Part shown: positions 1,671-36,500 of the stretch, in pieces
How the letters are laid out: every line of letters begins with the position of its first letter
Numbering within the stretch: the stretch's first letter is position 1
Assembly (NCBI GenBank): GCA_008501735.1
Contig: QQUF01000045.1
Location: 5,735 to 69,734 of the forward strand
DNA from: Calditrichota bacterium
Lineage (GTDB): Bacteria > CLD3
Length of the DNA stretch: 64,000 bases
Direction: 5' to 3'
Position numbers and translations under genes: made by a program
Notes under the pieces: generated by a model
The model's input: the letters and a program-made list of their open reading frames with translations, nothing else
What the model was told of the DNA's origin: nothing
Databases searched by the model: none

Positions 1671-1673
1671 ATT

Positions 1674-3818: not shown

Positions 3819-3920
3819 TAAAATCCATTATTATTTTAATTAAGTAAAGTTAAAAACTTTTTTCCAATAATTTTTGTTTTAAATCAAAAGTTAAACTTTT
3901 TCATAAAAAAGAAATTTCAA

Positions 3921-4376: not shown

Positions 4377-4377
4377 A

Positions 4378-10493: not shown

Positions 10494-10654
10494 TCTTTTA
10501 GCCTAAATTATTGAATTTAAAATTTTTACTTTTTGCACTTTAGTATTTTTATAAAACTTTTACAAGAAAATTTTCAATTGGATGTAATTTCAGTTTTTAA
10601 TTTGTGAAAACATAATTTCTGTTTTATGTTTTTCTACAAATTTTTAAAACAAAG

Positions 10655-16570: not shown

Positions 16571-16586
16571 TGGCATTGAGTTTGGA
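16571..16586 (+). promoter_or_regulatory. weak sigma-54-like promoter candidate (TGGCA-N6-TTGGA) upstream of the 16640 cargo gene
   Basis: tggcattgagtttgga matches the -24 TGGCA element and part of the -12 element (TTGG instead of TTGC), about 55 nt upstream of the ATG. Near-match only. Confidence 0.2.
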
Positions 16587-16639
16587 ACTAACAATTTTGT
16601 CAAACAACAAATTCATTACAAACCAAAGGAAACAAGACA

Positions 16640-18192: not shown

Positions 18193-19665
18193 ATGAAAAA
18201 ACTTACAACAACACTCTTAACACTTAGTTTAGGCTTAACCTTAGCTTCAACTTCTTTCGCAGATAAAATGTATTGGACGGATTATGGAACAAAAAAAATC
18301 CAACGTTCTGACTTAGATGGTTCAAATATCGAAGACCTTGTTACAACAGGGTTAGGTTTTCCTTTTGGAATGACCTTAGATTTAACTAATTCCAAAATGT
18401 ATTGGGCGGATGGTTCGACAAATAAAATCCAACGTTCTGACTTAGATGGTTCAAATATCGAAGACCTTGTTACAACAGGGTTGAGTTTTCCTGTAGGAAT
18501 CACCTTAGATTTGACTAATTCCAAAATTTATTGGTCAAACTACGGTGACTTAAATATTCAAAGGTCTAATTTAGATGGCACAAATGTGGAAGAAGTAGTT
18601 ACAAATCTGGATACTCCTCTTGGAATTGATTTAGATTTAACAAATTCCAAAATTTATTGGGTTGACACAGGAACGAATAGAATCCAAAGAGCAAACTTAG
18701 ACGGTTCAAGTGTAGAAAATTTAGTTACATCAGGGGTAGATAATTGCAGATTTATTAAGTTAGATATAGCTAGCTCAAAAATGTATTGGACTGATACTTC
18801 AGCAGATAAAATCCAAAGAGCTAATTTAGACGGTTCTAATGTGGAAGATTTAGTTACTACAGGATTAAGTTCCCCTGTAGGTTTAGCTTTAGATATTCCA
18901 AATTCGAAAATGTATTGGACTGATACTTCAGCAGATAAAATCCAAAGAGCAAACTTAGACGGTTCTAATGTGGAAGATTTAGTTACTACAGGACTAAGTT
19001 CTCCTTCTGCAATCGCACTTAATCTTACAGACGCACCACTTTCGGTAGAATTAAATTCTTTCTCTGCTCGTCAATTTGAAAATTCAATCCAACTTAATTG
19101 GTCAACAGCTTCCGAAACTGAAAACGAAGGTTTCAACATTTACAGAAAAACAAGTGGAAGTGAATTTGTCCAAATCGCTTCTTACAAAAGCCACAGAGAA
19201 CTCAAAGGACAAGGAAACACAACATTTGAGACAGGTTACACTTTCACTGACAATTCAAAATTACAAAACAGTGAATTTTACACTTACGTAATTTCTGATG
19301 TTGAAACAAACGGAGTTGAAACCAAGCACCAAGAAAATTCTCAAAGCATAAAATTTGTTTTTGATGAAGAAATTTCACAAACAAAACTTGACTACATTTT
19401 AGCTCAAAATTTCCCTAATCCTTTTAATCCAAGCACAACAATTAATTTTCAAGTTGCGAAAACCCAAGATGTTAGACTTGCAGTTTATAATTTAAACGGA
19501 AAACTTGTGAAGGAACTTGTCAACGAACCGAAAGCCAAAGGCTCACACAATGCAGTTTGGGACGGAACAGATGAAACCGGAAAATCTGTCTCAAGTGGAA
19601 CTTATTTCTACAAAATCTCGGCAGGCACTTTCACACAAACTAACAAAATGATTTTATTAAAATAA
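18193..19665 (+). CDS. YWTD beta-propeller protein with T9SS C-terminal sorting domain (paralog with near-identical internal blade repeats)
   Basis: 490 aa; same architecture as 16640..18109; 5' region including the ribosome-binding context and signal peptide is homologous to the preceding gene. Confidence 0.8.
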   Translation: MKKLTTTLLTLSLGLTLASTSFADKMYWTDYGTKKIQRSDLDGSNIEDLVTTGLGFPFGMTLDLTNSKMYWADGSTNKIQRSDLDGSNIEDLVTTGLSFPVGITLDLTNSKIYWSNYGDLNIQRSNLDGTNVEEVVTNLDTPLGIDLDLTNSKIYWVDTGTNRIQRANLDGSSVENLVTSGVDNCRFIKLDIASSKMYWTDTSADKIQRANLDGSNVEDLVTTGLSSPVGLALDIPNSKMYWTDTSADKIQRANLDGSNVEDLVTTGLSSPSAIALNLTDAPLSVELNSFSARQFENSIQLNWSTASETENEGFNIYRKTSGSEFVQIASYKSHRELKGQGNTTFETGYTFTDNSKLQNSEFYTYVISDVETNGVETKHQENSQSIKFVFDEEISQTKLDYILAQNFPNPFNPSTTINFQVAKTQDVRLAVYNLNGKLVKELVNEPKAKGSHNAVWDGTDETGKSVSSGTYFYKISAGTFTQTNKMILLK

Positions 19666-19776: not shown

Positions 19777-22700
19777 ATGCCTTACAAAATCATACGTAAA
19801 ATCGCCTCAGGAACTTTCGGCACAGTTTACAAAGTCCAGGAAACAACTAACAGTGAATTCTACGCCTTAAAATTAATCCACGAAAATTACAAAAGCCCTA
19901 AAGAACTGAAAAGAATCAAACGTGGTTTTGAGTCAGCTCAAATAGTATCACACCCAAATTGTGTAAAAATGATTGAATGGTATGAGGAAAAAGACCAAAT
20001 TGGTTTTGTGATGGAATTTGTAGATTCCGTAGAGACGCAAAATCTCGCGTATAGTGAAAAGAATAATTCCCTTGTAGAGACGCAAAATCTTGCGTCTCTA
20101 CAAAATAAAATTTCAAAAATAATTCAAATTGCAAATGGGCTTGAAGCACTTCACTCAACAGGAATCATTCACAGAGATTTGAAACCTGCAAACATTCTTG
20201 AAACCAAAGATGGTCAAATTAAAATCACTGATTTTGATTTAGTGAAACTTGACGATTCCTCCACTCTCACAGCTTCGGGAGCTTTCCTTGGAACTGCAAA
20301 ATATTCTTCTCCTGAACAATGCCAAAACTCTGCTAAAATTGATTTCCGTTCTGACCTTTACTCACTTGGAGTTCTTTTCTACCAATTAGTTTGTGGCAGA
20401 GTTCCTTTTGAAGGAGATTCATTGGCAGAAATTGCACTTGGTCACATTCGTACTCCACTAATTTCTCCAAAACAATTTGTTCCTGATTTACCAGAAGTTT
20501 TGAATACAGTAATTGCCAAACTCCTAAAAAAAAATCCAAAAGATAGATTTCAATCTGCTCAAGAAGTCTCAAAGATTTTAGATACTTTTTTGAAAGAAGG
20601 AAAAGTTGAAAACTTGGAAACTTTCGGTGATTTTCTTTTAACTCCGGGTTTCGTTGGACGAGGAAAAGAATTTTCAGAGTTGAGCAAAATCTTTTCAGAA
20701 ACAACTAACAAGCTGAAAACAATTCTAATTAGTGGTGAACAAGGAGTTGGAAAAACAAAATTGTGGAAAGAATTCAGACTTGGTTTACCAAAAAACTCAA
20801 CTTTAGTGTTTGAGACAAAGTGCAGACAAAATGGAAACACTTTTGAACCACTTCAAACAATTCTTGCAAAAGCATTAGAACAAATCGAGAAACTTTCTGG
20901 CAAAGAACAAGCTGAAAAAATTGGACGATTTGGAAAAGACCTTTGTAAGATTTTTCCACAACTTGAACAAAAATTTTTTTTTAAACATTTACTGGAAATT
21001 CCAGCTCTTGAGGGTATTGAATCAGAGCTTAGACTTTTTGAAGCATTTACAAATTTCCTAAATAATATTCAAAAAGAAAAACAGACTTTAGTTTTCTTTT
21101 TCGACGACTTACAATGGATTGATGAACTTAGTCTAAAGTTTCTTGGTTATTTAACAAGGAGTTTATCTAATAATTCAATTTTAGTTTTGGGAACTATTAG
21201 AAAAGAACAAATTGAAAATGTATTAGAAGAAATTGATGATTCTAAGATTCTCACTCTCGAAAATTTTGAATTAGAAGAAGTCCGTGAATTTCTCACAAAA
21301 ATGTTTGGCAAAGCTGACCCTGTAAACACAAGATTTTGTGAAGAAATTTTGAAACGCACAGGTGGAAATGTTTTGTTTGTTCAAGAGCTAATTTTTCACT
21401 TGTTAGAAACAAAGGAATTGAATAAAAGTGAGGGTGATTGGGATTTAGGTGAAGAATCTTTCACAAAACTAAAACTACCAAAATCAATTCAAAGTGTTGT
21501 TGGTGAACGTCTAAATTTCTTACCTAAAAATTTACTAAAGTTACTCGAAGTTGGTGCACTTCTCGGAAAGTTTTTTACAACGAAAGTAGTGGCAGAAGTC
21601 CTTTCTTTAGAAGAAAATGAAGTTGAAAGTAAATTAGCAAACTCGACTTTTGAAGGTATTTTAGAAAAATCGGAAAGTAATATTTTTGAATTCGTAAACG
21701 ACTCTTTTAGAGAAAGCCTTTCAAATTCGCTAAAACCAAATACCAAAAAGTCAATTCACAGAAAGATAGCAGTTTACTTAGAGAAGCGTTTTAATGAATT
21801 TGAAATTTTGGAAGAACTTGCTAATCATTACTTTGAAGCTGGTGTGAAGAAAAAAACTTTTAATTACTGTTTGAAAGCTGGAGTTTCTTTAAAAGAGGTT
21901 TATGACTATGCGAAAGCAGAAACATTTATTTCAAATGCAATTACTGCAATTGAAGCGAGAAATATTTCCGAAAGAATAAATATTTCTAACCTAAAGGCTG
22001 AATGCTTAGAAAAGTTGGGTGATTTTGAACAAGCCGAAAAAATTTATTCCCATAATTTAAAATTGGCATTTGATTCAAATTCTGAAAATGAAATAATAGC
22101 TGATATTTATTTTGCTTTGGGTAGAATTAATTCTGAATTATTTAATATTGAAAATACTCAAAAATATTTTAAACTATCTTTAAACCTTTACATCAAATTA
22201 AGAGATTTTAAATTTATAATTTTAATTCATAAAGAATTGTCTCGTTCATTTATTTATCAAAATAAATTTTCTGAAGCCCAAAAATATTTAGATTTAGCAT
22301 TAGAAGTTGCTGAAAGTAATAAAATTTATGATGAAGTGATTAGTTGTTATACTTACCAATGTACTATTCTTGGAAGTGTCGGAAAATTCGATGAGGTTTT
22401 GATTTATGCAAAAAAGATTAATGATTTTGAAGAAAAGCAAGGAAGTTCAAGGAAAGATTTTACGGGTTTAATTTTTCTCGGTTGGGTTTATAAAAACTTA
22501 ACAAATTTTGTAAAAGCATCTTTTTATTTTGAAAAAGCTGTTAAAAATTTAGAGAAGAACAGTTATTCTGATACATATTTAAGAGCGTTAAACGGTGTTA
22601 GCCTTTGTAATTTTGAATTAGGAAATTTTGAAAAAGCAATTGAATTCTCTTTGAAAACTATCAGACAAGCAATCCTAATTAAAGATTTTAGACAAGTAGG

Positions 22701-24834
22701 AAATTCTTACAACGACATTGCATTATTTTATACAACCTACGGAAACTTTGATGAAGCCTCTAAAATGCTTGACAAAAGCATTGAAGTATCAAGAAAAATT
22801 AATGATGAATTTCAAATTGCAAATTCATTTTATCTTTTGGGAGAGATTGAATTTTTTAAAAGCAATTTTTTAGAAGCGATTTCAAATTATGAAGAATCTG
22901 TTAAAATTTATAGTAAAATTGAAATGGAGTTCAAAGCTCCAATTTTATTATACAATCTTTCTAAGTCAAATTATAAACTCAGAAACTACCCAAAAGCATT
23001 AGAAAATATATCTAAAAGCCAAGAACTTGCCCAAAAATTTGAAAATGAGAATGTAATTTTCAATTGTCAAATTTTGAAAAATAAAATTGATTTTATGTTG
23101 GGAAATAAAGAGCAAGCAATTCAAAATATTTACTCTTTTATTCAATCTGAAAATGATGAAAGAAAATCAGCAATTTTAAGAATTTCATTCTGTAATCTTT
23201 TTGCAAAAGACCGAAGTTTGGGAATTTTGATTTCAGAGGATTTTGATTTTCAAGAATTTCTTTTAGAAACAAAAAGTTTAACTGAAAAGGTTCTGAAAGA
23301 GAAGTTTAATTATGAAATTTCTAAGGACTTAGAAGAACTGAAACTTCTTGAAAAACCTTCTATTAGCTTGGATTTAGATTTAATTTCCTCGTTTGTGAAA
23401 TGGATTGAACCTTCAAATCTTTTTAGCGAACTTTTAGAATTTTTGAAAAAACAAACAAATGCAACTTCGGCAATTCTTATTTTACAGAATCCAATTACCA
23501 AAAAATTTGAAATTGCAAGTTCAACGAATGAAATTTCAAATGAGGATTTAGATTTTAGCAAAGGTATTTTTGAAGAATCAATAAAAAATCATAAACCAAT
23601 TCTAATTGAGAATGCTTTAGAGAATCCAAATTTTAGTTCAAACCAAAGTGTTGTCGGTAAGATTTTCCTTTCGGTTTTAGTTGTCCCAGTAAGTCTAAAT
23701 AAAAAAGTTATTGGAGCAATTTACGTTGAACGCTCAAAATTGGAATTAGAAAAATTTAGAATCCCTGATTTGCAACAAGTCGAAAGAATTGCAAAACTTA
23801 TTTCACCGATTTTGCAAAAACAAAACGAAAACAAAGTTCTTAAAACTGAATCAGAAGTTAAAAAATTAGGAATCTTCATTGGTAACAGCCTAAAAATGCA
23901 AAAATTATATCAGCAAATCCAAAATGCTGCGACAGTTGATTACACAACTTACATTTACGGCGAAACCGGAACAGGGAAAGAATTAGTTGCAACTGCTCTG
24001 CACAAATTAAGTCTAAGAAAAGACAAACCTTTTGTAGTAATTAATTGCTCGGCAATTCCGAAAGATTTAGCTGAAAGTGAACTTTTCGGACATTCAAAAG
24101 GTGCGTTTAGTGGAGCAATTTCTGATAAAACAGGAAAATTTGAACTTGCAAACGAAGGAACACTTTTCCTTGATGAAGTCGCAGAATTATCTTTGGAAAT
24201 TCAAGCAAAACTGCTCCGAGCAATTCAACAAAAGGAAATTTGGCGAGTCGGTGGAAACAAAGGAATAAAAGTAAACATAAAAATCATTGTTGCAACTCAC
24301 AAAAATCTTAGCGAGGAAGTTCAGAAAGGTAATTTCCGTGAAGACCTTTTTCACAGATTAGATGTTTTGAAAATCGAAGTTCCTCCTTTGAGGGAAAGGT
24401 TAGAAGACATTCCACTTTTAGCAAATTCAATTTTAGAAAAAGTCAGTAAGGAGTTGAACAAAAAATTCTTGGGTTTCTCACAAAGTGGAATTAAATCTCT
24501 TTTTGAACAAAGATGGAAGGGGAATGTCAGAGAATTAGAAAATGTGATTACAAAATCAGTAATAAATCTTCAAATTGAAAAGTCATTAAGCGAAAATGAT
24601 TTATTCCCAAATCAAATTACCAAACGAAATTCAGATGAACCTTTAGAAGTAATCCTTAATGGAAAATCTTTTGATGAGAAATTAGAAAACTTGGGTAAAA
24701 AAATCTTGTTAACAAACTTAGAGTCCACAAATTGGAACAAACGGCAATCGGCAAGAGAATTAGGAATTAGTAGAAATAGGCTCAAACGTTTGATTTCTAA
24801 GTATGAGCTTGTTGAACCACATTCTTCACTTTAG
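19777..24834 (+). CDS. giant multidomain regulator, paralog 2: Ser/Thr kinase - LAL-type NTPase - TPR - GAF - sigma-54 activator - HTH
   Basis: 1685 aa; kinase motifs (ASGTFGTVYKV, HRDLKPANIL, ITDFDL, SSPEQ); Walker A GEQGVGKTKLW and Walker B LVFFFDDLQWID; TPR-like region; GAF-like (VGKIFLSVLVVPV...GAIYVER); sigma-54 activator (GETGTGKELVATALH, ESELFGHSKGAFSGA, FLDEVAEL, FREDLFHRLDV); C-terminal HTH (RQSARELGISRNRLKRLI). Confidence 0.85.
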   Translation: MPYKIIRKIASGTFGTVYKVQETTNSEFYALKLIHENYKSPKELKRIKRGFESAQIVSHPNCVKMIEWYEEKDQIGFVMEFVDSVETQNLAYSEKNNSLVETQNLASLQNKISKIIQIANGLEALHSTGIIHRDLKPANILETKDGQIKITDFDLVKLDDSSTLTASGAFLGTAKYSSPEQCQNSAKIDFRSDLYSLGVLFYQLVCGRVPFEGDSLAEIALGHIRTPLISPKQFVPDLPEVLNTVIAKLLKKNPKDRFQSAQEVSKILDTFLKEGKVENLETFGDFLLTPGFVGRGKEFSELSKIFSETTNKLKTILISGEQGVGKTKLWKEFRLGLPKNSTLVFETKCRQNGNTFEPLQTILAKALEQIEKLSGKEQAEKIGRFGKDLCKIFPQLEQKFFFKHLLEIPALEGIESELRLFEAFTNFLNNIQKEKQTLVFFFDDLQWIDELSLKFLGYLTRSLSNNSILVLGTIRKEQIENVLEEIDDSKILTLENFELEEVREFLTKMFGKADPVNTRFCEEILKRTGGNVLFVQELIFHLLETKELNKSEGDWDLGEESFTKLKLPKSIQSVVGERLNFLPKNLLKLLEVGALLGKFFTTKVVAEVLSLEENEVESKLANSTFEGILEKSESNIFEFVNDSFRESLSNSLKPNTKKSIHRKIAVYLEKRFNEFEILEELANHYFEAGVKKKTFNYCLKAGVSLKEVYDYAKAETFISNAITAIEARNISERINISNLKAECLEKLGDFEQAEKIYSHNLKLAFDSNSENEIIADIYFALGRINSELFNIENTQKYFKLSLNLYIKLRDFKFIILIHKELSRSFIYQNKFSEAQKYLDLALEVAESNKIYDEVISCYTYQCTILGSVGKFDEVLIYAKKINDFEEKQGSSRKDFTGLIFLGWVYKNLTNFVKASFYFEKAVKNLEKNSYSDTYLRALNGVSLCNFELGNFEKAIEFSLKTIRQAILIKDFRQVGNSYNDIALFYTTYGNFDEASKMLDKSIEVSRKINDEFQIANSFYLLGEIEFFKSNFLEAISNYEESVKIYSKIEMEFKAPILLYNLSKSNYKLRNYPKALENISKSQELAQKFENENVIFNCQILKNKIDFMLGNKEQAIQNIYSFIQSENDERKSAILRISFCNLFAKDRSLGILISEDFDFQEFLLETKSLTEKVLKEKFNYEISKDLEELKLLEKPSISLDLDLISSFVKWIEPSNLFSELLEFLKKQTNATSAILILQNPITKKFEIASSTNEISNEDLDFSKGIFEESIKNHKPILIENALENPNFSSNQSVVGKIFLSVLVVPVSLNKKVIGAIYVERSKLELEKFRIPDLQQVERIAKLISPILQKQNENKVLKTESEVKKLGIFIGNSLKMQKLYQQIQNAATVDYTTYIYGETGTGKELVATALHKLSLRKDKPFVVINCSAIPKDLAESELFGHSKGAFSGAISDKTGKFELANEGTLFLDEVAELSLEIQAKLLRAIQQKEIWRVGGNKGIKVNIKIIVATHKNLSEEVQKGNFREDLFHRLDVLKIEVPPLRERLEDIPLLANSILEKVSKELNKKFLGFSQSGIKSLFEQRWKGNVRELENVITKSVINLQIEKSLSENDLFPNQITKRNSDEPLEVILNGKSFDEKLENLGKKILLTNLESTNWNKRQSARELGISRNRLKRLISKYELVEPHSSL
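20074..20101. repeat. perfect hairpin (10-bp stem, loop aaaatctt) embedded in the kinase-domain coding sequence, preceded by a partial direct copy at 20029-20050
   Basis: gtagagacgc-aaaatctt-gcgtctctac read directly; a 22-nt near-copy gtagagacgcaaaatctcgcgt lies 45 nt upstream; together they encode an insertion (VETQNLAYSEKNNSLVETQNLASL) relative to paralog 1. Confidence 0.6.
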
Positions 24835-24900
24835 TAAAGCATTACAGCAAAAGGATCTAATACGAACCACCATAAATTCAATAATTTAAATTATTTATAA

Positions 24901-24960
24901 AAAAGGGTCTAGAGTGAACCCAATGATTTTAAAATCATTGGGTTCACTCTAGACCCTTTT
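24901..24960. terminator. 60-bp perfect palindrome (probable bidirectional terminator or protein-binding site) downstream of regulator paralog 2
   Basis: aaaagggtctagagtgaacccaatgatttt immediately followed by its exact reverse complement aaaatcattgggttcactctagaccctttt; flanked by an A-run on the 5' side and T-run on the 3' side. Confidence 0.55.
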
Positions 24961-25137
24961 TTTGTTTAAAGGAACAATGGGCTTGAATCAAATTATTGAT
25001 TTTACACAACTTATACAACCTTTGGAAAATTTGGCACAGAATTAGTAACTACTTTGAGGTAATTAATTACATAGCCTTTCGTCTCGTAGTTTTATTGCTA
25101 CGAGGCGATTTATTAATTAAAACTAAGGAACTAAAAA

Positions 25138-26613
25138 ATGCACAAATTTACAAAAGCCTTCATTTCTTTAAGTTTACCACTTTGCTTTATCGCAAACGTC
25201 AATGCACAGAAAATTTATTGGTCCGACCAACCAAATTTGAAAAGAGCAGATCTAGATGGCTCAAATGTAGAAGACATTACTCCAGCAATTTTTAACGGTC
25301 CAAGAGCCGTTACAGTTAATAAAACAGAATCAAAGATTTATTGGGTTGACCAAAACGGATTTAATTATCGCAAATCTGATTTAGACGGTACAAATTTGGA
25401 AACTTTGTTCAATACAACAGGTGGTGCAGGAACTGCAATGGCAATTGATGAAACAAACTCAAATATTTATCACGGAAATGTTAGTTTTGTAGGTGGCTTT
25501 AACCCATTTATTGAAAAAAGAAATTTAGATGGTTCGAACAACTCTACAATTATTAGTTCTTTATCTGGTAGTGTCAAAGATATTGCATTAGATGTTAATA
25601 ACTCTTTAATTTATTTTACAGTTTCAAATACAATCCAAACAGTAAACTTTGATGGCTCTAACCAACAAACTATTGTTACAGCAACAAGTAATATTCAAGA
25701 CATTACTTTAGATTTGACGAATAATAAACTTTACTACACAGACCAAAACACTGGTTTAAATACTGGAAAAGTAGTAAGAACAGACTTAGATGGTTCAAAT
25801 CCAACAGACATTCTTACAGCCTTATCTAATCCTGAAGATATTCATTTAGATGTAACAAATTCTCAAATCTATTGGGGAGACGGTGGAGAAGATAAAATTT
25901 TTAGATGCAATTTTGACGGAACAGGAACTGAGACAATTGTCACTGGAGTCAGTATTTCTATTGCTGATTTCTCATTAGTCTCAGCAGATGCACCACTTTC
26001 TGTAGAATTAAATTATTTCACAGCTCGTCAAATTGAAAACTCAATTCAGCTTTCCTGGGCAACGGCTTCTGAAACTGAAAATGAAGGTTTTAATGTTTAT
26101 AGAAAATTAGGAAATGAGGATTTTGTAAAAATCGCTTCTCACAAATCTCACACTGAACTTAAAGGGCAAGGGAACACTTCTTTAGAAACTTTTTACACCT
26201 TTAATGACAACTCAAAATTACAAAATGGCGAATTTTACACTTACCTAATTTCAGACGTTGAAACAAATGGAATTGAAACTAAGCACGAAGAATCTGCTCA
26301 AAGTGTTCTTTTTGAAGTCCAATCACAGGAAGTCAGAAAATTCGAGTTAAAACAAAACTATCCTAATCCTTTTAATCCAAGTACAACAATTTCTTACAAT
26401 CTTGCAAAAGATTCAAAAGTAAGTCTCAAGATTTACAATGAAATAGGTGAATTTGTCAAAGAACTCACAAATGGTTTTCGTTACGAAGGTTCACACAATG
26501 TAATTTGGGACGGAACTAACAACAATGGAAAATCTGTTTCAAGTGGAACTTACTTCTACAAAATTTCAGCAGGAACTTTCACACAAACTAACAAAATGAT
26601 TCTACTCAAATAA
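25138..26613 (+). CDS. divergent YWTD-like beta-propeller protein with T9SS C-terminal sorting domain
   Basis: 491 aa; signal peptide; degenerate blades (KIYWSD, KIYWVD, LIYFT, KLYYTD, QIYWGD with DLDGSN/DLDGTN); LSVELNYFTARQIENSIQLSW module; T9SS tail. The C-terminal ~375 nt is identical to the next gene. Confidence 0.75.
   Translation: MHKFTKAFISLSLPLCFIANVNAQKIYWSDQPNLKRADLDGSNVEDITPAIFNGPRAVTVNKTESKIYWVDQNGFNYRKSDLDGTNLETLFNTTGGAGTAMAIDETNSNIYHGNVSFVGGFNPFIEKRNLDGSNNSTIISSLSGSVKDIALDVNNSLIYFTVSNTIQTVNFDGSNQQTIVTATSNIQDITLDLTNNKLYYTDQNTGLNTGKVVRTDLDGSNPTDILTALSNPEDIHLDVTNSQIYWGDGGEDKIFRCNFDGTGTETIVTGVSISIADFSLVSADAPLSVELNYFTARQIENSIQLSWATASETENEGFNVYRKLGNEDFVKIASHKSHTELKGQGNTSLETFYTFNDNSKLQNGEFYTYLISDVETNGIETKHEESAQSVLFEVQSQEVRKFELKQNYPNPFNPSTTISYNLAKDSKVSLKIYNEIGEFVKELTNGFRYEGSHNVIWDGTNNNGKSVSSGTYFYKISAGTFTQTNKMILLK
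26083..26457 (+). repeat. ~375-bp tract identical to 28413..28787 (copy A)
   Basis: Direct by-eye nucleotide comparison: gaaggttttaatgtttatagaaaattagg ... gaaataggtgaatttgt is identical in both adjacent genes, whereas flanking sequence differs at multiple sites. Confidence 0.8.
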
Positions 26614-26694
26614 ATTATCAGATTTAAAGTTGGAAATTGGAAAAGAAGCGATATTGGAAAATTTAAATTCTAAACAACAATAGGAATTAACAAA

Positions 26695-28944
26695 ATGAAA
26701 AATTTAGCTAAATCCATTTTAACCATAGTAATTAGCTTTAATTTCTTTTCGAATAGTTTCGCAGAGTATGAGAAAAAAATTGTTTCTAATGACTTGGTAG
26801 CAGATGATTTTTTAGGTCAAGATGTTGACATTAGTGGAGATTACGCAATTGTTGGAGCTCCAAATGATGACGATGGATTTCTAAGTTCGGGTTCAGCTTA
26901 CATTTTTAAAAGGTCTGGAACTGCTTGGGTCCAACAAGCAAAACTAACGGCAAGTGATGCTGCACAAGGTGTTAATTTCGGAAAGGCTGTTGCTATTAGT
27001 GGAGATTATGCCGTTGTTGGTTCTAATTCGTCTTTTATTGCAGGTTCTGCAAATGTTTTTGTCAGGACTGGAAATTCTTGGACTGAGCAAGCTAAGATTT
27101 CGGGCTTAGACCCAACGGCTAATAATGAATTTGGCTCATTTGTTGAAATTGATGGAGATTACATAATTGTTGGAGCTCCAAGAGCTGAACACGGTGGAAT
27201 TCAAAATACAGGTGCAGTTTACATATTTCATAGAAGTGGGACAAGTTGGAATCAGCAGAACAAACTTGTAGGCTCTGGTTCAGGTTCTAATGATGGTTTT
27301 GGGTATTCAGTTTCAATAAGTGGAGATAAAGCTATAGTTGGAGCAAACGGCACAAATAATGCTGGAATAGCTTACATTTTTGAAAGAAATGGTTCATCTT
27401 GGACTCAACAAACTGCATTAATTCCGAATGATACTCATTCAAATGCTTTCTTTGGACAAGGAGTTGGGATTTATGAAAATTATGCTGTAATTGGTGCTCC
27501 ATTTCATAATGGAACAGAATCAGCTTCAGGTTCCGCTTATGTATATAAATTTTCAGGTGGTTTTTGGACTCAAGAGGCTCAACTTTTTGCAAGTGATATT
27601 GGTGCAAATGAATTTTTTGGTTGGTCGGTAGATATAAACGGAACTGACTTGTTTATTAGTTGTTTAAATGAAAATGATGGAAGTTTTTCTCAAATTGGTT
27701 CTGCTTATCATTTCGCAGAAGAAGGAAACAACTGGGTCCAACAGGCAAAATTCAAAGCAGATGATGGAGCTTCAGGAGATAATTTTGGATTCCAAATCGC
27801 AGCCTCTTCAAGTTTTGCAATTGTTGGAGCTTATCAAAATGATGGAGTTGCAACTGATGGAGGAGCAGCATACATTTATTCAATAAACCCATTCGGGAAT
27901 GGTGATGTAACAAAAGCAATCTCTGGAGATGTTGATGTGAGTTTTGACGAAGGTTCTGGTGATAACACAACTCCAAATGAGGACACAGGAATAGACATTT
28001 CTTTTACTGGTGTCTCGAATTCTGCAAGTGTTCAATGTGAATCTTTTCCAGAAGCCCCAACAGGAACAAATGGAATTTCAGGAACGGTACAAGAAGTTCG
28101 TTGGGTAATTACAAATTCGGGATTGAATTTTGCAAATGCTGAAATTAAAATTGATATGACAACACTTCCTATTGAAATGAATAATCCTAATACAGCAATA
28201 ATTTATCATCGTTCAACTCCTGGAAGTGGAACCTTTTCAGCACTTGCAACAACCGTTGATGGAAATAATCTTGTCGCAAACACGCCAAGTTTTAGTGAAT
28301 TTGCAATTGGTGGCGGAGATTCTCCTCTTGCAGTGGAATTAAGTTCTTTTTCTGCTCGTCAAATTGGAAGTTCGATTCAACTTAATTGGTCAACAGCTTC
28401 TGAAACTGAAAACGAAGGTTTTAATGTTTATAGAAAATTAGGAAATGAGGATTTTGTAAAAATCGCTTCTCACAAATCTCACACTGAACTTAAAGGGCAA
28501 GGGAACACTTCTTTAGAAACTTTTTACACCTTTAATGACAACTCAAAATTACAAAATGGCGAATTTTACACTTACCTAATTTCAGACGTTGAAACAAATG
28601 GAATTGAAACTAAGCACGAAGAATCTGCTCAAAGTGTTCTTTTTGAAGTCCAATCACAGGAAGTCAGAAAATTCGAGTTAAAACAAAACTATCCTAATCC
28701 TTTTAATCCAAGTACAACAATTTCTTACAATCTTGCAAAAGATTCAAAAGTAAGTCTCAAGATTTACAATGAAATAGGTGAATTTGTAAAAGAACTCACA
28801 AATGGATTCCGTTACGAAGGTTCACACAATGTAATTTGGGACGGAACTAACAACAACGGAAAATCTGTTTCAAGTGGAATTTACTTCTACAAAATTTCAG
28901 CAGGAACTTTTACACAAACGAATAAAATGATTTTGCTGAAGTAG
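26695..28944 (+). CDS. FG-GAP repeat (integrin-alpha-like) beta-propeller protein with T9SS C-terminal sorting domain
   Basis: 749 aa; signal peptide; repeated FG...GAP units (FLGQDVDISGDYAIVGAPNDDDG...SGSAYIF, FGKAVAISGDYAVVGS, FGSFVEIDGDYIIVGAPRAEHGG, FGYSVSISGDKAIVGA); LAVELSSFSARQIGSSIQLNW module; T9SS tail; starts 81 nt after the preceding gene with no terminator between. Confidence 0.8.
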   Translation: MKNLAKSILTIVISFNFFSNSFAEYEKKIVSNDLVADDFLGQDVDISGDYAIVGAPNDDDGFLSSGSAYIFKRSGTAWVQQAKLTASDAAQGVNFGKAVAISGDYAVVGSNSSFIAGSANVFVRTGNSWTEQAKISGLDPTANNEFGSFVEIDGDYIIVGAPRAEHGGIQNTGAVYIFHRSGTSWNQQNKLVGSGSGSNDGFGYSVSISGDKAIVGANGTNNAGIAYIFERNGSSWTQQTALIPNDTHSNAFFGQGVGIYENYAVIGAPFHNGTESASGSAYVYKFSGGFWTQEAQLFASDIGANEFFGWSVDINGTDLFISCLNENDGSFSQIGSAYHFAEEGNNWVQQAKFKADDGASGDNFGFQIAASSSFAIVGAYQNDGVATDGGAAYIYSINPFGNGDVTKAISGDVDVSFDEGSGDNTTPNEDTGIDISFTGVSNSASVQCESFPEAPTGTNGISGTVQEVRWVITNSGLNFANAEIKIDMTTLPIEMNNPNTAIIYHRSTPGSGTFSALATTVDGNNLVANTPSFSEFAIGGGDSPLAVELSSFSARQIGSSIQLNWSTASETENEGFNVYRKLGNEDFVKIASHKSHTELKGQGNTSLETFYTFNDNSKLQNGEFYTYLISDVETNGIETKHEESAQSVLFEVQSQEVRKFELKQNYPNPFNPSTTISYNLAKDSKVSLKIYNEIGEFVKELTNGFRYEGSHNVIWDGTNNNGKSVSSGIYFYKISAGTFTQTNKMILLK
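28413..28787 (+). repeat. ~375-bp tract identical to 26083..26457 (copy B)
   Basis: See copy A; identity ends abruptly on both sides. Confidence 0.8.
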
Positions 28945-28970
28945 CTAAACTCTCTCTTACAAACATAAGA

Positions 28971-29003
28971 AGCCTGACAATTAAATTTGTTAGGCTTTTT
29001 TTA
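28971..29003. terminator. bidirectional intrinsic terminator between convergent genes
   Basis: agcctgacaa-ttaaat-ttgttaggct hairpin followed by ttttttt; homologous to the terminator at 19686-19720; overlaps the 3' end of the minus-strand DinB-like gene. Confidence 0.55.
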
Positions 29004-29493
29004 TTGCAGTAATCTTCGCGAGATGATGGTCATCGTGTTCAGCAATGAAGAAACACAAATCAACAACTGTCATCAACTTTTTTAGTCTTGGGTGAAATAC
29101 GGAAGTAAAAACTTTTTCTGTTGACAAATTTTCAAGTCTCATTACTAATTCACCCCTTTCTTTTCTAAAATCAACCAAAATTTCTTTTAAGTCTTTTCCG
29201 TTGTGATTAGAATTTTCGGTTTTTAGATTTTGTAAATCCGCAGCTCGTAAAGTTTCTATTTTGTTTTCGAAATCATCTAATCTTCCAAGCCAAAGTTCTT
29301 CCAAATCTAATAAGTGTCCAACATTTTCTTGAATTGACCAAGAGGCTTCATCAATTTTAGTGGTACAAATACTTGGAGAAAGGTTTCTAGTTCTTTCTTC
29401 TAATCTTAAAGGAGTTCCTCTCAGCCTTTCGAGTAGATTTGGGAAAAGCCAAATTGGAGTTTCCAAAGCAAATTTTCTATCAAACCACTTCAT
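28990..29493 (-). CDS. DinB/YfiT-like (DinB_2) family metal-dependent protein
   Basis: 167 aa; four-helix-bundle-like sequence with histidine-rich C-terminal motif (FFIAEHDDHHLAKI) typical of the DinB_2 superfamily. Confidence 0.6.
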   Translation of the reverse strand: MKWFDRKFALETPIWLFPNLLERLRGTPLRLEERTRNLSPSICTTKIDEASWSIQENVGHLLDLEELWLGRLDDFENKIETLRAADLQNLKTENSNHNGKDLKEILVDFRKERGELVMRLENLSTEKVFTSVFHPRLKKLMTVVDLCFFIAEHDDHHLAKITAIKKA

Positions 29494-29588
29494 TTAAATT
29501 CTTCATATTATTTAAAATTTGAAATGAGTTCAGCCTTTAGGTTGTTTTTTACACAATCAGCCTAAGAACTTACCATTAATTTCTTATT

Positions 29589-32500
29589 CTATTTTTCTAA
29601 CTCAATTTCTTTTATTAAACTTGGTGCAGTCAGTGAATCAGTGTTTGCAGTAACTACGTAAAAGACTTTATTTCCAAGGTTAAAAGCGTTTTGATCTGAG
29701 AAATTCAAATTTTGAGTTGTTCCAATTTGAGAAGAAGTTCCAATACTAAATTTTGGATTTCCTGCATTTTTATAAATTTTGTAAAAATTAGCACCAACAA
29801 TTGAATTCCAACTTAACTGAACATTGTTTCCAACCAAGTTTAAAGAAACTTGAGGAGGTATCAACTCACTACTTGTAATTGAAATGTCATCAAAAGCAAA
29901 ACCGTCTGTTGCAATTGTATGATTGTCTCTGTGTTGAAATCTAACATAAAATGGATGTGAAATTGTCATTCCGTTTGAATTTGCAACTTGACTTAAATTC
30001 ACTGCAAATTGATTCCAACCGCTAAAACTTTGAGGTAGAAGTTGAAAAGCTAATACATAATTTTCACCGTCATCACTTATAAAAATTCCATCTTCTGAAT
30101 TGTCTTCATCGGCAAAATCTTTCCACCAAAATGAAAGCATCAAATTTGAATTATTTTCAGGGTTTATTTCAATTGTTGCAGAGTTTGTACTTGTATTTTG
30201 ATCAACACTTGAATCCATAGTTAAATGGTAATTTCCACTATGAGTTGGCAGCCCTAATGAATTTGTAACTTGAACTTGACCGAAGGAACTACTTGATTCA
30301 AATTTCCACCATTCTCCGAGAGGCTGATTTTCAAATCCTTCCGAAAAAGGTAAAGTTGTGGAATAGTCAACTGGTACCACTAAAATTTGATTTGAATAAC
30401 TCGAACTTCCAATAGAATTTACAGCTTTCACTCTGTAAATATAACTAACACCTTCAACCAAATTGAAATCTGTAAAACTCCACTCATTTTCATTTGTTGT
30501 TCCAACTTCTGTAAAAGTTGACCAAATATTATCAATTTTTCTTTCAATAATAAAATGAGTTTCATTATAAGAATTTTCTGTCCAATTTAGCTTGACTTTC
30601 AAGGACTTTGAATTATCTGATATTAAATTTGTCGGAGCTTGAGGAACGCCTTCCAAAGTTGTTGCACTCAAAGTATTTGTGTAATGAGAATTACCTATAG
30701 AATTATAAGCTGTAACTCTGTAAAAGTATTCTGTTTTTTCTTCCAAATTTGTGTCAATGAAAGTCTCAATGTTTGCATCAACTGTGTCAACGACAGAAAA
30801 ACCCGAATTTTGATTATTTGACCTTTCAATGATAAATCCTAATTCATCATTTGACTGGTCAATCCAAAAATTGTAAATCTCACTTGTAGAGGTCGCTAAT
30901 AAAAATAAATTTGTCGGAGCTTGAGAAGAAGTTCCTGCATTTGAGTCAACAACCAAATTTACAGGAATATTAATAATTGGGTCTACAGGGTCATTTGAGG
31001 CAAATTCTAAAGTAGTGTTGTAAATTCCATTTGTTAAATTTGTTGCGTCTAAACTCAAAGTCAAAAGTTCCTGACTAATTCCTGTAACTAACCCATTTTG
31101 TGGAGAAATACTTGCCCAAGTTGGTGAATTTGTAAATGTTGTATTATAAGAAAGAATCGAACCCAAAATTCCACTAACAACATTTATACTTTTATTTACA
31201 AAGCCATTTGGAGCTAAAGAAAGCGTAACATTATTTGTCAAAATAATACCTGAAGGATTTGAGAAACTCTCCAAATTCGATTCCCAAAGCCCTCTACCAA
31301 AAGTCGCTGCTCTGATTTTCCCTGAAGGATAATGAAGTTCGATTTCTTCAACTACAACATTTGGTAAACCATTACTAAAGTCCTGCCAATTTCCTCCACC
31401 TGTTGTTGAAAAGAAAATTCCTAAATCAGTGCCAATATAAACTTGATTTGGAAAAAGTGGGTCAATTGCAATACAATTTACAGGCATATCGGGAAGATTC
31501 CCTGAAACATTTGTCCAGTTCAAACCGCCGTCAGTTGATTTAAATACTTTCTCGCCACTCGAACTCGTGAAACCCGAATGAGTTACCCAAACTGTGTGTT
31601 CGTCATTTGGGTGAACTGCGATGTAAGTGATTGAATTACTTGGCAAATTCCCACCAATGTCAATCCAAGAATTTCCACCGTTTGTAGTTTTAAAAATATT
31701 ACTTCCGTTTGCAGTATAAATCACATTTTGGTTTGAGTTTGCAAGCACAAGTGAAGTCAAATTTCCTGCTCCCAAATCATCACTTATCGGGAACCAATTT
31801 GCACCTTGGTCAGTACTTTTGTAAACTTTAATTGTGGTTCTGTAAAGTTCATTAGTGTTGTAAGGATTTATCACGAAAGGAGTTACCCAAGCACCATTTT
31901 CATTTACTCCATTGTTAATTCCAGAATTATTTACTCCAGCATTTGTTGATTTTAAAAATGAACCGTTTTGGTAACTTGTGTAAATGATATTCGGGTTTGT
32001 TGGGTCAACAGCACATTCCATTCCATCACCACCAGAGACTTTTGTCCAAACTCCATTGTCTATTTTTGAAGTTCCATTGTCTTGAGCTCCTGTGAGGACA
32101 AACTCTGGGGTCATTTGTGAAACTCCAAGTGTGTAAAATTGTCTAATTCCCAAATTCCCACTAATATTTTCGTAAGAAGCTCCACTGTTTGTTGACTTGT
32201 AAATTCCACCATCATTTCCGATTAAAACTGTGTTTCCGTCATAAAAAACAACCGTGTGATTGTCAACGTGCATCGAACTTGAAAGATTTGTTACTTGATT
32301 GTTGATTGACCAAGTTGAACCACCATTAACAGAACGATAATTCCCGACTACTCCAACAATTACGTTGTTTTCATCAGTTGGCGAAACTCCGAGATGTAAA
32401 TCATACCAAGCCTGATTTCCGCTTGTTACTGAAGAATCAGCCAAAGTCCAAGTCGCTCCATTAGTTACACTTTTAAAAAGCGTTGCATCATCTGAATTTG

Positions 32501-33488
32501 TAAACAATGAAAAAACTGTTGAAGGGTTTGTAGCTCCTGTTACGTCAACTGCAATTCTATCGTAATCAATGTTATTGAATCCACTAAAAGTTGAATTCCA
32601 AGTTTCACCGTTGTCAGTAGATTTATAAATTCCATTGCTTTGTCTTGCTGCATACCAAGTTGTAGTATTGTTTGGGTCAAATTCAATGTCTTTGAAAGTT
32701 CCTGATTCTTTGGTTATCCAAGTTGCCGCAGCATCAGTTGATTTTAGAATTCCTTCTCCTGTAACAGCAAAAATTGTATTAGAATTCGTTGGGTCAAAAA
32801 TCAATTCATAAATTTTTGCATAATTCTGGATATTGTAACTTAAACCAGTTGTGTTCCAAGTTTGTCCGCCGTCAATTGATTTTAAAACTCCAATACTAAT
32901 TGTAGCTCCGTGGTCTCTGTCTCCTGTTGCGATGTACATAATATTTGTATCATTCGGGTCAATCAAAATCCAAGAAATTCCAAGTGTTGGCAACTCATCA
33001 GTCATTGGTTCCCAATTTTGTCCGTTATCAACTGTCTTCCAAAGTCCGCCTGCAGGAGTTCCAGCCCAAATAATGTTTGAATTGTTTGGGTCAACAGCAA
33101 TGCAATCAACTCTTCCGCTTCCCTGACCGCTTCCACTTGGATAAAGAACAATTTGCTCTGGTCCCATTTCTGTCCAATTTGCAGTATTGATTTGATTTGT
33201 TCCTTTTCCATTTCCAAAATTTAATTTCTTTTGTTGCCAAGCATTCCACAAAGCAGTTGGATTTGGGAAATCTCCATTCGGTTCTATTCTGTCTTGCCAA
33301 AAATGTTCCCAACGTTTGAAAGGCTTCCAACCTTCTCCTTTTCCGGGAATTTTTCCTTCCCAATGTTGGGTAAAGGCTTCTTGAATTTCGTAAAAATTGG
33401 CGTTTCTATCCAAATCTTTCATCCAAGGTTGTGCAAATAATTGAGTAATAAAAATTAGACTTAAGGAAATTGTTAAAAGAAATTGCAT
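29589..33488 (-). CDS. secreted BNR/Asp-box repeat beta-propeller protein with FN3 domains (tandem paralog 1 of 3)
   Basis: 1299 aa; signal peptide MQFLLTISLSLIFITQLFAQ; many Asp-box repeats (SIDGGQTWN, STDNGETWN, SVNGGSTW, STDQGANW, TTNGGNSW, STDGGLNW); FN3-like segments (e.g. EYFYRVTAYNSIGNS, SYIYRVKAVNSIGSS); no T9SS tail recognisable. Confidence 0.8.
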   Translation of the reverse strand: MQFLLTISLSLIFITQLFAQPWMKDLDRNANFYEIQEAFTQHWEGKIPGKGEGWKPFKRWEHFWQDRIEPNGDFPNPTALWNAWQQKKLNFGNGKGTNQINTANWTEMGPEQIVLYPSGSGQGSGRVDCIAVDPNNSNIIWAGTPAGGLWKTVDNGQNWEPMTDELPTLGISWILIDPNDTNIMYIATGDRDHGATISIGVLKSIDGGQTWNTTGLSYNIQNYAKIYELIFDPTNSNTIFAVTGEGILKSTDAAATWITKESGTFKDIEFDPNNTTTWYAARQSNGIYKSTDNGETWNSTFSGFNNIDYDRIAVDVTGATNPSTVFSLFTNSDDATLFKSVTNGATWTLADSSVTSGNQAWYDLHLGVSPTDENNVIVGVVGNYRSVNGGSTWSINNQVTNLSSSMHVDNHTVVFYDGNTVLIGNDGGIYKSTNSGASYENISGNLGIRQFYTLGVSQMTPEFVLTGAQDNGTSKIDNGVWTKVSGGDGMECAVDPTNPNIIYTSYQNGSFLKSTNAGVNNSGINNGVNENGAWVTPFVINPYNTNELYRTTIKVYKSTDQGANWFPISDDLGAGNLTSLVLANSNQNVIYTANGSNIFKTTNGGNSWIDIGGNLPSNSITYIAVHPNDEHTVWVTHSGFTSSSGEKVFKSTDGGLNWTNVSGNLPDMPVNCIAIDPLFPNQVYIGTDLGIFFSTTGGGNWQDFSNGLPNVVVEEIELHYPSGKIRAATFGRGLWESNLESFSNPSGIILTNNVTLSLAPNGFVNKSINVVSGILGSILSYNTTFTNSPTWASISPQNGLVTGISQELLTLSLDATNLTNGIYNTTLEFASNDPVDPIINIPVNLVVDSNAGTSSQAPTNLFLLATSTSEIYNFWIDQSNDELGFIIERSNNQNSGFSVVDTVDANIETFIDTNLEEKTEYFYRVTAYNSIGNSHYTNTLSATTLEGVPQAPTNLISDNSKSLKVKLNWTENSYNETHFIIERKIDNIWSTFTEVGTTNENEWSFTDFNLVEGVSYIYRVKAVNSIGSSSYSNQILVVPVDYSTTLPFSEGFENQPLGEWWKFESSSSFGQVQVTNSLGLPTHSGNYHLTMDSSVDQNTSTNSATIEINPENNSNLMLSFWWKDFADEDNSEDGIFISDDGENYVLAFQLLPQSFSGWNQFAVNLSQVANSNGMTISHPFYVRFQHRDNHTIATDGFAFDDISITSSELIPPQVSLNLVGNNVQLSWNSIVGANFYKIYKNAGNPKFSIGTSSQIGTTQNLNFSDQNAFNLGNKVFYVVTANTDSLTAPSLIKEIELEK

Positions 33489-33518: not shown

Positions 33519-36500
33519 TTACTTCTGAATTTCTAATTTCTCAGAAGTACTAATTGGTACAGAAGTTGAATCTGTGTTAGCAGTAACAATGTAAAATATT
33601 TTGTTTTCAGAACTAAAAGCATTTTGGTCTGTAAAATTCAAAGTTGATGTAATTCCCAAGAGATTTGAATTGTTCACGCTAAAGTTTGGGTTTCCGATAC
33701 TCTTGTAGATTTTATAAAAATTTGCACCAAGAACGGAATTCCAATTTAATTGAATGTCATTTCCAACCAAGTTTAAAGTTACTTGTGGAGACAACAATTC
33801 ACTACTTGTAATCGAAATGTCATCAAATGCAATTCCATCTCCATCAGAAATTGGAAAGTTGTCTCTTTGCTGAAATCTAACAAAAAATGGATGCGAAATA
33901 GTCATTCCAACAGAATTAGCAACTTGGCTCAAATCTACTGTAAACTCTGTCCAACCAGAGTAACTTTCCGGAAGCAATTGCAAAGCTAAAACATAATTTT
34001 CACCGTCATTACTAATAAAAATTCCATCTTCTATGTTATTCTCATCACCAAAATCTTTCCACCAAAACGAAAGAATTAAATTAGAATTATTTTCAGGATT
34101 AATCTCAACTGTTGCAGAATTAGTACTAACTTTTAAATTTTCACTTATATCCATTGTCAAATGATAATTTCCACTGTGAGTCGGTAAACCTAAGGTATTT
34201 GTTACTTGAATTTGCCCGAAAGTACTGCTTGTTTCAAATTTCCACCATTCACCCAAAGGAGAATTTTCAAATCCTTCATTAATCGGTAATGTAGTTGTGT
34301 TATCAATTGGAACAACCGTAATTTGATTTGAATAAACTGAACTACCAATGGAATTTATAGCCTTGACACGATAAATGTAAGAAACTCCCTCAACCAAATT
34401 ATTATCTGAAAATGTCAATTTATTTGCCTCAACACTTCCAATTTCCGTAAAACTTGACCAAATATTATCAACTTTCCTCTCAATCACAAAATTGGTTTCA
34501 TTATCCGAATTATCTGTCCAACTTAACTTTACTTGCAAAGAGTTAGGAGTATCACCAATCAAATTAGTTGGAGCTTGCGGAACGTCGTCCAAAGTAGTTG
34601 CCGAAAGAGTATTTGTGTAATGCGAGTTTCCTGTTGCATTGTAAGCCGTAACTCTATAAAAATATTTCGTAGCTACTTCTAAATTAGTATCTACAAAAGT
34701 TGTAATATTTGCATCAACAGAATCTACAACTGTAAAGCCTGAGTTTTCATTTTTAGAACGCTCAATAATAAAACCTAATTCGTCATTCGATTGGTCAGCC
34801 CAAAAAGTATAAATATCACTTGTAGATGTTGCCAATAGGAATAAATTTGTTGGAGGATTTGGAGAATTTCCAGCATTTGGGTCAACAGTTAAATTTACAG
34901 GAATATTGATAACAGGATTTGTTTGGTCACTTGTTGTAAGTTCAAGAGTCGTGTTATAATTTCCATTTGTTAAATTCGTTGCATCTAAACTCAATGTTAG
35001 AATTTCATTCGTTATCCCGACCAATAAACCGTTTTGTGGAGAAATTGATGCCCAAGTAGGTGAATTAATTAAAGTTGAATTATAAGAAAGAGCCGCTCCT
35101 AAAGTCCCATTAATTAGACTTATATTTTTGTTCGCAAAACCATTTGGTTGCAAAGAAAGTGTAACATCATTTGTCAAAATTATTCCTGCTGAATTTGAGA
35201 AACTCTCCAAATTTGATTCCCAAAGTCCTCTTCCATAAGTTGCAGCTCTAATTTTTCCTGAAGGATAATGAATTTCAATTTCGTTGACTACAACATTTGG
35301 CAAACCGTTACTAAAATCCTGCCAATTTCCTCCGCCTGTTGTTGAAAGAAAAATTCCTAAGTCTGTTCCGATATAAACTTGGTTTGGGAAAACTGGGTCA
35401 ACAGCAATACAATTTACAGGCATATCAGGAAGATTCCCAGATATATTTGTCCAACTTAAACCTCCGTTAGTAGTTTTAAAAACTTTTTCTCCACTTGAAC
35501 TTGTAAAGCCAGACATCGTTACCCAAACTATATTTTCGTCAGTTGGGTGAACTGCGATATAAGTAATTGAATGAAGTGGTAAATTAGAACTTATATCAGT
35601 CCAAGAATTTCCACCATCTAAAGTTTTTAAAATAGTATGAAAATTCGCTGTATAAATTACATCTTGATTTGAGTTTGCAAGTGCAAGTGAAGTCAATCTT
35701 CCTATCCCAAAATTATCACTAATCGGAAACCAATTTGCTCCTTGGTCAGTACTTTTATAAACTCTATTTGTAGTCCTAAAAAGTTCGTTAGTGTTATAAG
35801 GATTAATTATAAATGGAGTTACCCAAGGACTATCTTCATTGATTCCATTATTAATAGCAACGTGAGTAGTACCTGCATCTGTAGATTTTTTAAAATATCC
35901 AAGTTGGAAGCTAAAATAAATTATGTTTGGGTCAGTTGGGTCAACAGCACATTCCATTCCGTCAGCACCAGAAATATTTGTCCAAACTCCATTTTCCACT
36001 TTTGCATTTCCATTGTCTTGAGCTCCTGCAAGAACCATTTCGGGTGTCATTTTTGAAACACCAATTCTATAAAGTTGCCTAATTGCAATATCTCCATTAA
36101 TGTTCTCATAAGAGACTCCAGCATTTACTGATTTGTAAACTCCTCCATCACTTCCAATCAGAACCGTAGAACTATCAACCCAAACAACTGTGTGATTGTC
36201 AACGTGAACATTACTTTGGAAATTATTTATTAGCTGATTGTTTAAAGTCCAGGTCGAACCACCGTCAACAGAACGAAAATTTTCTATTACACCAACTAAT
36301 ACAATGTTTTCATCAGTCGGAGAAACTCCAAGATGCAAATCGTACCAAGCTTGAGAACTACTTGTTACAGCAGAATCTACAAGAGTCCAAGTTGTTCCGT
36401 TAGAAACACTTTTGAACAAAGTCATATCATCTGGGTTTGCGAACAAAGAATAAACTATAGAAGGGTTTGTAGCTCCTGTTACGTCAACTGCAATTCTACC

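Follow-up and report, generated by a model that had tools for sequence, protein, structure and literature searches.

Our study describes a block of identical sequence shared by two adjacent genes, here designated D and E, in an uncultured Calditrichota bacterium. The genes lie on contig QQUF01000045.1 of assembly GCA_008501735.1, within a 64-kb stretch that was analyzed as a whole and is referred to below as the window; all coordinates are positions in this window. The source is a metagenome-assembled genome (MAG), and both copies of the block are known from the assembled contig alone. Gene D (25138-26613, forward strand) encodes a protein of 491 amino acids with a signal-peptide-like N-terminus, a YWTD/LDL-receptor class B beta-propeller and a C-terminal module. 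Gene E (26695-28944, forward strand) encodes 749 amino acids, with a signal-peptide-like N-terminus, seven FG-GAP repeats, a spacer of about 150 residues and a copy of the same module; its protein product is identical to NCBI KAA3597875.1. Judged by eye, both N-termini open with basic residues, which are followed by a hydrophobic core and an A-x-A-like end (D starts MHKFTKAFISLSLPLCFIANVNAQ and E starts MKNLAKSILTIVISFNFFSNSFAEYE). The two genes are on the same strand with a gap of 81 bp and no terminator-like site between them, and are probably co-transcribed. In the leader of D, about 30 nucleotides before the start codon, a hairpin with a 12-bp stem (TCGTCTCGTAG...CTACGAGGCGA) followed by a T-rich run occupies positions 25079-25108; it could be an attenuator or a stabilizing structure.

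Pfam searches assign Ldl_recept_b, FlgD_ig and Por_Secre_tail to D, and FG-GAP_2 (6e-90, seven stretches) and Por_Secre_tail to E. A type A sorting domain of the type IX secretion system (T9SS) was accepted where TIGR04183/PF18962 scored above its curated cut-off. The protein from D reaches 30.4 bits for Por_Secre_tail (cut-off 27) and 28.4 bits for TIGR04183 (cut-off 23), and that from E reaches 31.7 and 31.4 bits against the same two cut-offs. A first-pass annotation of the window had labeled D and E as cargo genes, and this label is right because both sorting domains exceed the curated cut-offs. No component of the T9SS machinery (PorU/V, SprA, GldK-N and others) was found in the 64-kb window, and a literature search found no papers on Calditrichota or Calditrichaeota together with the T9SS.

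The homology between D and E is confined to their 3' ends. An ungapped blastn alignment joins 25986-26612 to 28317-28943 over 627 bp at 94.6% identity with the stop codons aligned, so that the module occupies 25986-26613 in D and 28317-28944 in E, both on the forward strand and in register at an offset of 2331. Upstream of 25986 and 28317 the genes show no relationship: 24-41% of nucleotides match per 100 bp, a forced alignment of the N-terminal parts gives 23% amino-acid identity, and the repeat families differ (YWTD versus FG-GAP). The annotation's view of D and E as otherwise diverged paralogs is thus not borne out. The module comprises 208-209 residues, which an AlphaFold model (predicted local distance difference test score, pLDDT, 79) folds into two beta-sandwiches, residues 5-112 and 123-209, separated by a low-confidence linker at residues 115-122. 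The first of these domains is fibronectin type III (FnIII)-like; the second, from about residue 123, corresponds in the model to the T9SS type A sorting domain. The best Foldseek matches to the module fold are generic tandem FnIII/Ig pairs. A Pfam search with the first domain returned no family even at E <= 10, and a PDB sequence search with the module yielded only weak FlgD matches, on the sorting-domain half. A motif of the form PL-x-VEL-x-F-x-A...W-x-T-x-SE-x-[DE]N-x-GF-x-[VI]-YR characterizes the first domain (25986-26340 in D, with equivalents in E, in genes A, B and C of the window, and in loci L001-L013 from other genomes), and the predicted FnIII-like domain precedes T9SS sorting domains in MAGs of Calditrichota, Ignavibacteria and Melioribacteraceae.

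Three further genes of the window, all on the forward strand and all encoding YWTD propellers, end in a copy of the module. The copy in gene A (7277-8752) lies at 8123-8752 and is 63% identical to the D module in amino acids and about 70% in nucleotides; that in gene B (16640-18109) lies at 17480-18109 with 78% and 80%, respectively; and that in gene C (18193-19665) lies at 19027-19665, with 70% amino-acid identity and a sorting domain whose central part is of a different subtype.

Within the module, a direct-repeat search and a base-by-base comparison identify an exact run of 374 bp, on the forward strand in both genes, in which 26083-26456 of D equals 28414-28787 of E at the offset of 2331. 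The tract is bounded to the base, because the sites directly outside it on either side, 26082 and 26457, both differ between D and E. It is the longest exact repeat that an all-against-all search found in the window, the runner-up being 155 bp. The first-pass annotation had reported a sharply bounded block of 375 bp at 26083-26457 and 28413-28787; such a block does exist between these adjacent genes, but the start of its second copy was placed one base too early, since 374 of the 375 positions match at offset 2331 and identity at offset 2330 is only 36.5%. The tract covers residues 316-440 of the D protein, or residues 34-158 of the module: its start falls within the FnIII-like domain and its end about 33 residues into the sorting domain, roughly one third along, with the whole linker in between. 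As it ignores the boundaries of the protein domains, its cause acts on DNA and not on protein.

The two copies of the module differ at 34 sites, of which 22 fall in the 97 bp of the 5' flank, none in the 374 bp of the tract and 12 in the 154 bp of the 3' flank. The 5' flank (25986-26082 in D, partner 28317-28413; forward strand) is 77% identical, with 12 differences in 33 third positions, 0.95 synonymous substitutions per synonymous site (dS), 0.15 non-synonymous substitutions per non-synonymous site (dN) and no exact run longer than 17 bp. The 3' flank (26457-26610, partner 28788-28941; forward strand) is 92% identical, with 10 differences in 52 third positions, a dS of 0.43 and a dN of 0.008. 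Between them the tract is 100% identical, including all 124 third positions, and both dS and dN are zero; the Nei-Gojobori (NG86) calculation returned a dS of 0.013 for it, and the single difference behind this value is the boundary site 26457. The annotation's statement that the flanking differences are mostly synonymous describes the 3' flank well (11 of 12) and fails for the 5' flank, where the same method counts 12 synonymous and 10 non-synonymous differences, which cause nine amino-acid changes.

A run as long as the tract did not occur in any of 200,000 permutations, either over all sites or over the 288 sites that are polymorphic among the five paralogous module copies (A to E), and an analytic estimate of its probability is about 2e-12. 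A Sawyer-type fragment test on the D-E pair gives p <= 1e-4. Fisher's exact test on all sites (0/374 in the tract versus 34/251 in the flanks) gives 8e-15, and at third positions 1.2e-9 for the tract against the 5' flank and 2.6e-6 against the 3' flank. A chance origin of the tract is excluded. Pairwise alignment with identity computed per 100 bp, a check that the annotation had called for, shows the differences clustered in the flanks, with none inside the tract, instead of spread uniformly.

The erasure of silent differences within the tract means that selection at the level of the protein cannot explain the identity. Purifying selection on the nucleotide sequence itself would be an alternative, in which a functional DNA or RNA element (a regulatory site, a small RNA or the template of a diversity-generating retroelement, DGR) is kept identical in D and E. 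The perfect identity is the one direct observation that speaks for such an element. Yet genes A, B and C match D/E at only 71%, 79% and 70% of positions in the same stretch, and an Rfam search of 24800-29600 returned no match in the tract, its only hits being sub-threshold hairpin matches on an unrelated palindrome. Nor do the flanking differences show the adenine specificity of a retroelement, and a Pfam scan of the 41 long, non-nested open reading frames of the window (>=100 amino acids) contained no reverse transcriptase. Taken with these data, selection on the nucleotide sequence is scarcely credible as the origin of the tract.

An identical block in a MAG contig, which here is 359,093 bp long, may also be a product of assembly. 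In this reading the true identity of the two copies is about 90% along their whole length, and their central part was collapsed or mis-threaded, so that one sequence was written twice. Metagenome assemblers deliberately merge bubbles of low divergence, and this general behavior lends the idea some weight. So does a protein of the same submission block, P0002 (KAA3604309.1), in which residues 105-413 and 430-738 form an exact internal duplication of 309 residues of FG-GAP repeats, either a very recent tandem duplication or itself an assembly artefact. Several features of D and E argue the other way. Both reading frames are intact with their stops in register, and dense differences persist to the very edges of the tract on either side. 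The 5' flanks, which are 77% identical with no exact run above 17 bp, should share no k-mers, and their paths would thus form no bubble that would let one version take the place of the other. At most a few isolated single-nucleotide polymorphisms (SNPs) could have been popped, each separated by at least k bases from its neighbors and from either edge, which would correspond to a true divergence of about 1.3% or less, 6-17 times below that of the flanks. Furthermore, other pairs of paralogs in the window display the same graded pattern at lower identity, where collapse is impossible. We therefore consider it quite unlikely that assembly created the tract.

Comparison with the remaining paralogs shows that the relationship between D and E changes along the module. 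In the 5' flank, which at 97 bp offers few sites, D and E are 77% identical to each other, and C is 83.5% identical to D and 84.5% to E. In the tract, by contrast, D and E are identical, and C, B and A share only 69.5%, 78.6% and 71% of positions with them. D and E are thus no closer to each other than to C in one segment and indistinguishable in the next, which is the phylogenetic mosaic that gene conversion predicts. From the discrete tract, the fall of dS to zero and this mosaic, we consider it likely that a recent ectopic (interlocus) gene conversion between the module copies of D and E, 2331 bp apart, left the tract behind. This agrees with the first-pass annotation, which had read the tract as the signature of recent gene conversion or recombination.

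The proposed event would be a non-reciprocal homologous recombination, presumably RecA-dependent, between the two direct copies of the 627-bp module. One copy would have served as template, and 374 bp of the other would have been overwritten with the loss of every difference, synonymous ones included. At the 5' side the exchange would have stopped where the copies are 77% identical without an exact run above 17 bp, a divergence expected to block the extension of heteroduplex. At the 3' side it ends within sequence that is 92% identical, which may have survived from an older exchange or come from one with a third paralog. On this view the process is recurrent: across the cargo genes of the genome the module evolves in concert, and their N-terminal propellers diverge or are unrelated. 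In this scheme we infer the recombination pathway, the number and order of the events and the donor gene.

A related history would have one gene capture the C-terminal part of its neighbor, from 26083 to the stop codon, by a recent partial duplication, after which the 3'-most 154 bp were overwritten by, or diverged through exchange with, a third paralog located elsewhere in the genome. The limits of the homology suit this account, in that they coincide with the start of the module and its stop codon; because the homology spans exactly this interval, the module must once have been joined to unrelated N-termini. In the 3' flank, too, D and E look like sister copies (92% identity, versus 84% for B and D; Fisher p = 0.05), and many further paralogs bearing the module exist outside the window, the MAG having at least 15 module-bearing genes. 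However, the homology between D and E reaches 97 bp further 5' than the tract, in frame and at 77% identity, and both genes therefore had the module before the event. An event that replaces a homologous segment already present is, by definition, gene conversion, so that this alternative differs from the conversion we propose in its history and not in its mechanism. Neither a duplication junction nor extra sequence is present, and we regard capture of the module as unlikely.

Several observations weigh against the gene conversion that we propose, or complicate it. The identity changes in three steps, and such a pattern takes either two or more events or an exchange that involved a third paralog. 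Where the 3' flank differs, at 12 sites, D agrees with other paralogs at some positions and so does E, which points to no clear donor; over all 34 differing sites each likewise matches A, B or C at some, with no consistent pattern. The identity of 100% may in truth be about 99%, because the source is a MAG, and a lone SNP that separates two almost identical repeats can be lost in short-read assembly. Independent copies for comparison are distant: the closest non-self homolog of E is 55% identical, a query of 185,579 GTDB species representatives with protein E returned only remote matches to the module (<=41% amino-acid identity), neither the source genome nor close kin of it being represented there, an exact 79-nucleotide piece of the tract had no matches in the metagenome contigs of the Joint Genome Institute (JGI), and exact-protein searches of a contig index with D, E, P0004 and P0025 had none either.

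Other recombination-based candidates were rejected. A single unequal crossover would delete or duplicate the end of D together with the N-terminal part of E; it would not leave two intact genes. Variation from cassettes was set aside because D and E are both complete genes. A DGR was discarded on account of the window scan, which revealed no reverse transcriptase, and of the 34 differing sites, which involve all four bases and are not specific to A.

Similar patterns recur in the window. Genes B and C share a tract of near-identity in which 17549-17657 matches 19096-19204 over 109 bp with one mismatch (Sawyer-type permutation p <= 1e-4). In three pairs of genes, dS is lower in the module than in the N-terminal part (0.44 versus 1.17 for B and C, 0.75 versus 1.49 for B and D, and 0.91 versus 1.28 for C and D). 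Immediately beyond E, on the reverse strand, lies a tandem trio of genes of about 1300 codons each (29589-33488, 33519-37427 and 37469-41377), whose products combine a Sortilin-Vps10/BNR-like propeller with fn3 domains. The second and third copies form a mosaic, with 70-100% identity per 150 nucleotides and exact runs of up to 155 bp, and the first copy is 65-91% identical to both; this mosaic probably reflects further gene conversion.

The pattern extends beyond the window. In the accession block to which E belongs, the adjacent genes KAA3604310/11 and KAA3606901/02 have modules that are 94% and 88% identical on N-termini that are 58-67% identical, and the block of KAA3597875.1 contains further proteins that combine FG-GAP repeats with the module. 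Two subtypes of the sorting domain can be told apart, the first with the pattern '...QTKLDY.LAQNFPNPFNPST.INFQ.AKTQDV...' and the second with '...VRKFEL.QN[YF]PNPFNPSTTISY.LAKD..VSLKIYN...'. The sets compared were the modules of B and C (17480-18109 versus 19027-19665) and, among the proteins, P0004, P0101 and P0084 versus P0002 and P0025. As the two subtypes are paired with the same or with different FnIII-like halves, the module itself is a recombinant mosaic.

The 80 loci retrieved from GTDB genomes include two independent analogues. One (locus L003, CAYMUL010000008.1) comes from an unrelated Ignavibacteriaceae MAG and carries two adjacent genes (8948-10675 and 10941-12668), annotated with an NHL propeller and Laminin_G_3, which have unrelated N-termini and end in the same FnIII-like plus sorting-domain module. 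Their modules are 80% identical over 255 bp, 100% over 246 bp and 92% over 90 bp, and beyond this the genes are unrelated; the exact tract (10340-10585 = 12333-12578) contains no difference in 82 third positions. The anatomy of this locus is the same as that of D and E, and it recurs in another phylum-level lineage. In a second MAG (locus L022, JANQEH010000158.1), adjacent genes at 45-1277 and 1635-4484 have about 700 bp in common at their 3' ends, of which the central 400 bp are 94% identical and the flanks 68% and 72%. The peak of identity spans the junction between the FnIII-like and sorting domains in all three examples (the window, L003 and L022), and this position could mark a preferred zone of initiation or selection on the junction. 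A broader proposition, which we offer tentatively and think rather doubtful, is that the FnIII-like plus T9SS sorting-domain unit is a portable 'export cassette' that is systematically homogenized among neighboring cargo genes across bacteria of the Fibrobacteres-Chlorobi-Bacteroidetes (FCB) group. If this were true, concerted evolution would keep the signal for secretion and anchoring matched to one sorting machinery, and the shared homology would permit unrelated N-terminal domains to be swapped onto the module, creating new cargo.

The surroundings of these genes have a repeated organization of their own. Two giant regulators on the forward strand (10655-15706 and 19777-24834; 1683 and 1685 amino acids) combine a Ser/Thr protein kinase, an AAA_16/STAND domain, TPR repeats, a sigma-54 activator domain and HTH_8. 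A third (60005-63997, reverse strand) runs off the end of the window, and its visible portion does not include the kinase part. The first two each precede secreted YWTD-propeller T9SS cargo genes on the same strand (B and C, and D and E, respectively), and this arrangement suggests a repeated 'sensor-EBP plus cargo' unit (EBP, enhancer-binding protein). B and D are each preceded by a weak -24/-12-like site (16571-16585 and 25032-25046, respectively); across the window the sigma-54 promoter pattern is not significantly enriched (40 found versus 32 expected). The spacer between the first regulator and gene B (15707-16639, 933 bp) holds forward-strand open reading frames of at most 54 amino acids, and its counterpart before D measures 303 bp. 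A perfect palindrome of 64 bp (24899-24962), with 32-nucleotide arms, no spacer and A6/T7 flanks, starts 65 bp past the stop codon of the second regulator. It has a terminator score on both strands, and its Rfam hairpin matches are sub-threshold only.

As judged from these alignments, the C-terminal export module of predicted T9SS cargo appears to evolve in concert in this uncultured Calditrichota genome, with functional N-terminal domains that diverge. Concerted evolution of the module would make trees of such families misleading, whether they are built from the sorting domain or from the whole protein, and paralog counts, dN/dS estimates and strain-level SNP calling need care in such regions. 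On a practical level, an exact direct repeat of 374 bp at a distance of 2.3 kb within coding sequence can break or mis-join short-read assemblies. The repeat should also lend itself to RecA-mediated deletion; the product would have the propeller of D joined to the tail of E and would lack the FG-GAP domain. Gene conversion as such is ordinary and expected from what is known of bacteria, and the phenomenon opens no long-standing question; what is new is the instance in an uncultured lineage and the modest twist that a two-domain module is the converting unit.

Among known systems, the pilE/pilS genes of Neisseria, vlsE of Borrelia and DGRs resemble D and E in having near-identical repeats at the 3' ends of genes for surface proteins and in copying from repeat to repeat. 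They differ in outcome, as the process in D and E homogenizes and does not diversify, and in equipment, the window scan having produced no reverse transcriptase. D and E are not silent cassettes, because each is a complete gene that runs from a start codon and a signal-peptide-like N-terminus to a sorting domain.

A closer parallel is provided by the rgpA, kgp and hagA genes of P. gingivalis, T9SS cargo genes in which recombination rearranges and swaps the adhesin and sorting-domain modules they have in common (PMC5266723). In both cases T9SS type A cargo genes carry near-identical C-terminal modules that recombine. The P. gingivalis genes are dispersed and belong to a host-associated organism, and their exchange is discussed as antigenic or functional variation, including allelic exchange between strains. 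D and E, in contrast, are adjacent genes of an environmental organism, and their module consists of an FnIII-like and a sorting domain instead of cleaved-adhesin/DUF2436 domains; no homology of D or E to the P. gingivalis adhesin domains was seen.

The nearest general precedent is interlocus conversion between bacterial paralogs, of which tufA and tufB are an example. Such conversion and the concerted evolution that accompanies it are documented for ribosomal RNA operons and for the PE/PPE and ESX repeat families of M. tuberculosis (PMC6002687, PMC12046097, PMC13061034). The tract in D and E shares the features of these systems: discrete identical tracts of tens to hundreds of base pairs within diverged paralogs, homogenized silent sites, trees of tract and flank that conflict, and repeats that short reads resolve with difficulty. 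It departs from them in its setting, an uncultured Calditrichota MAG known from one assembly, and in its unit, which is not a whole gene but a C-terminal two-domain export module carried on unrelated N-termini, a YWTD propeller in D and FG-GAP repeats in E.

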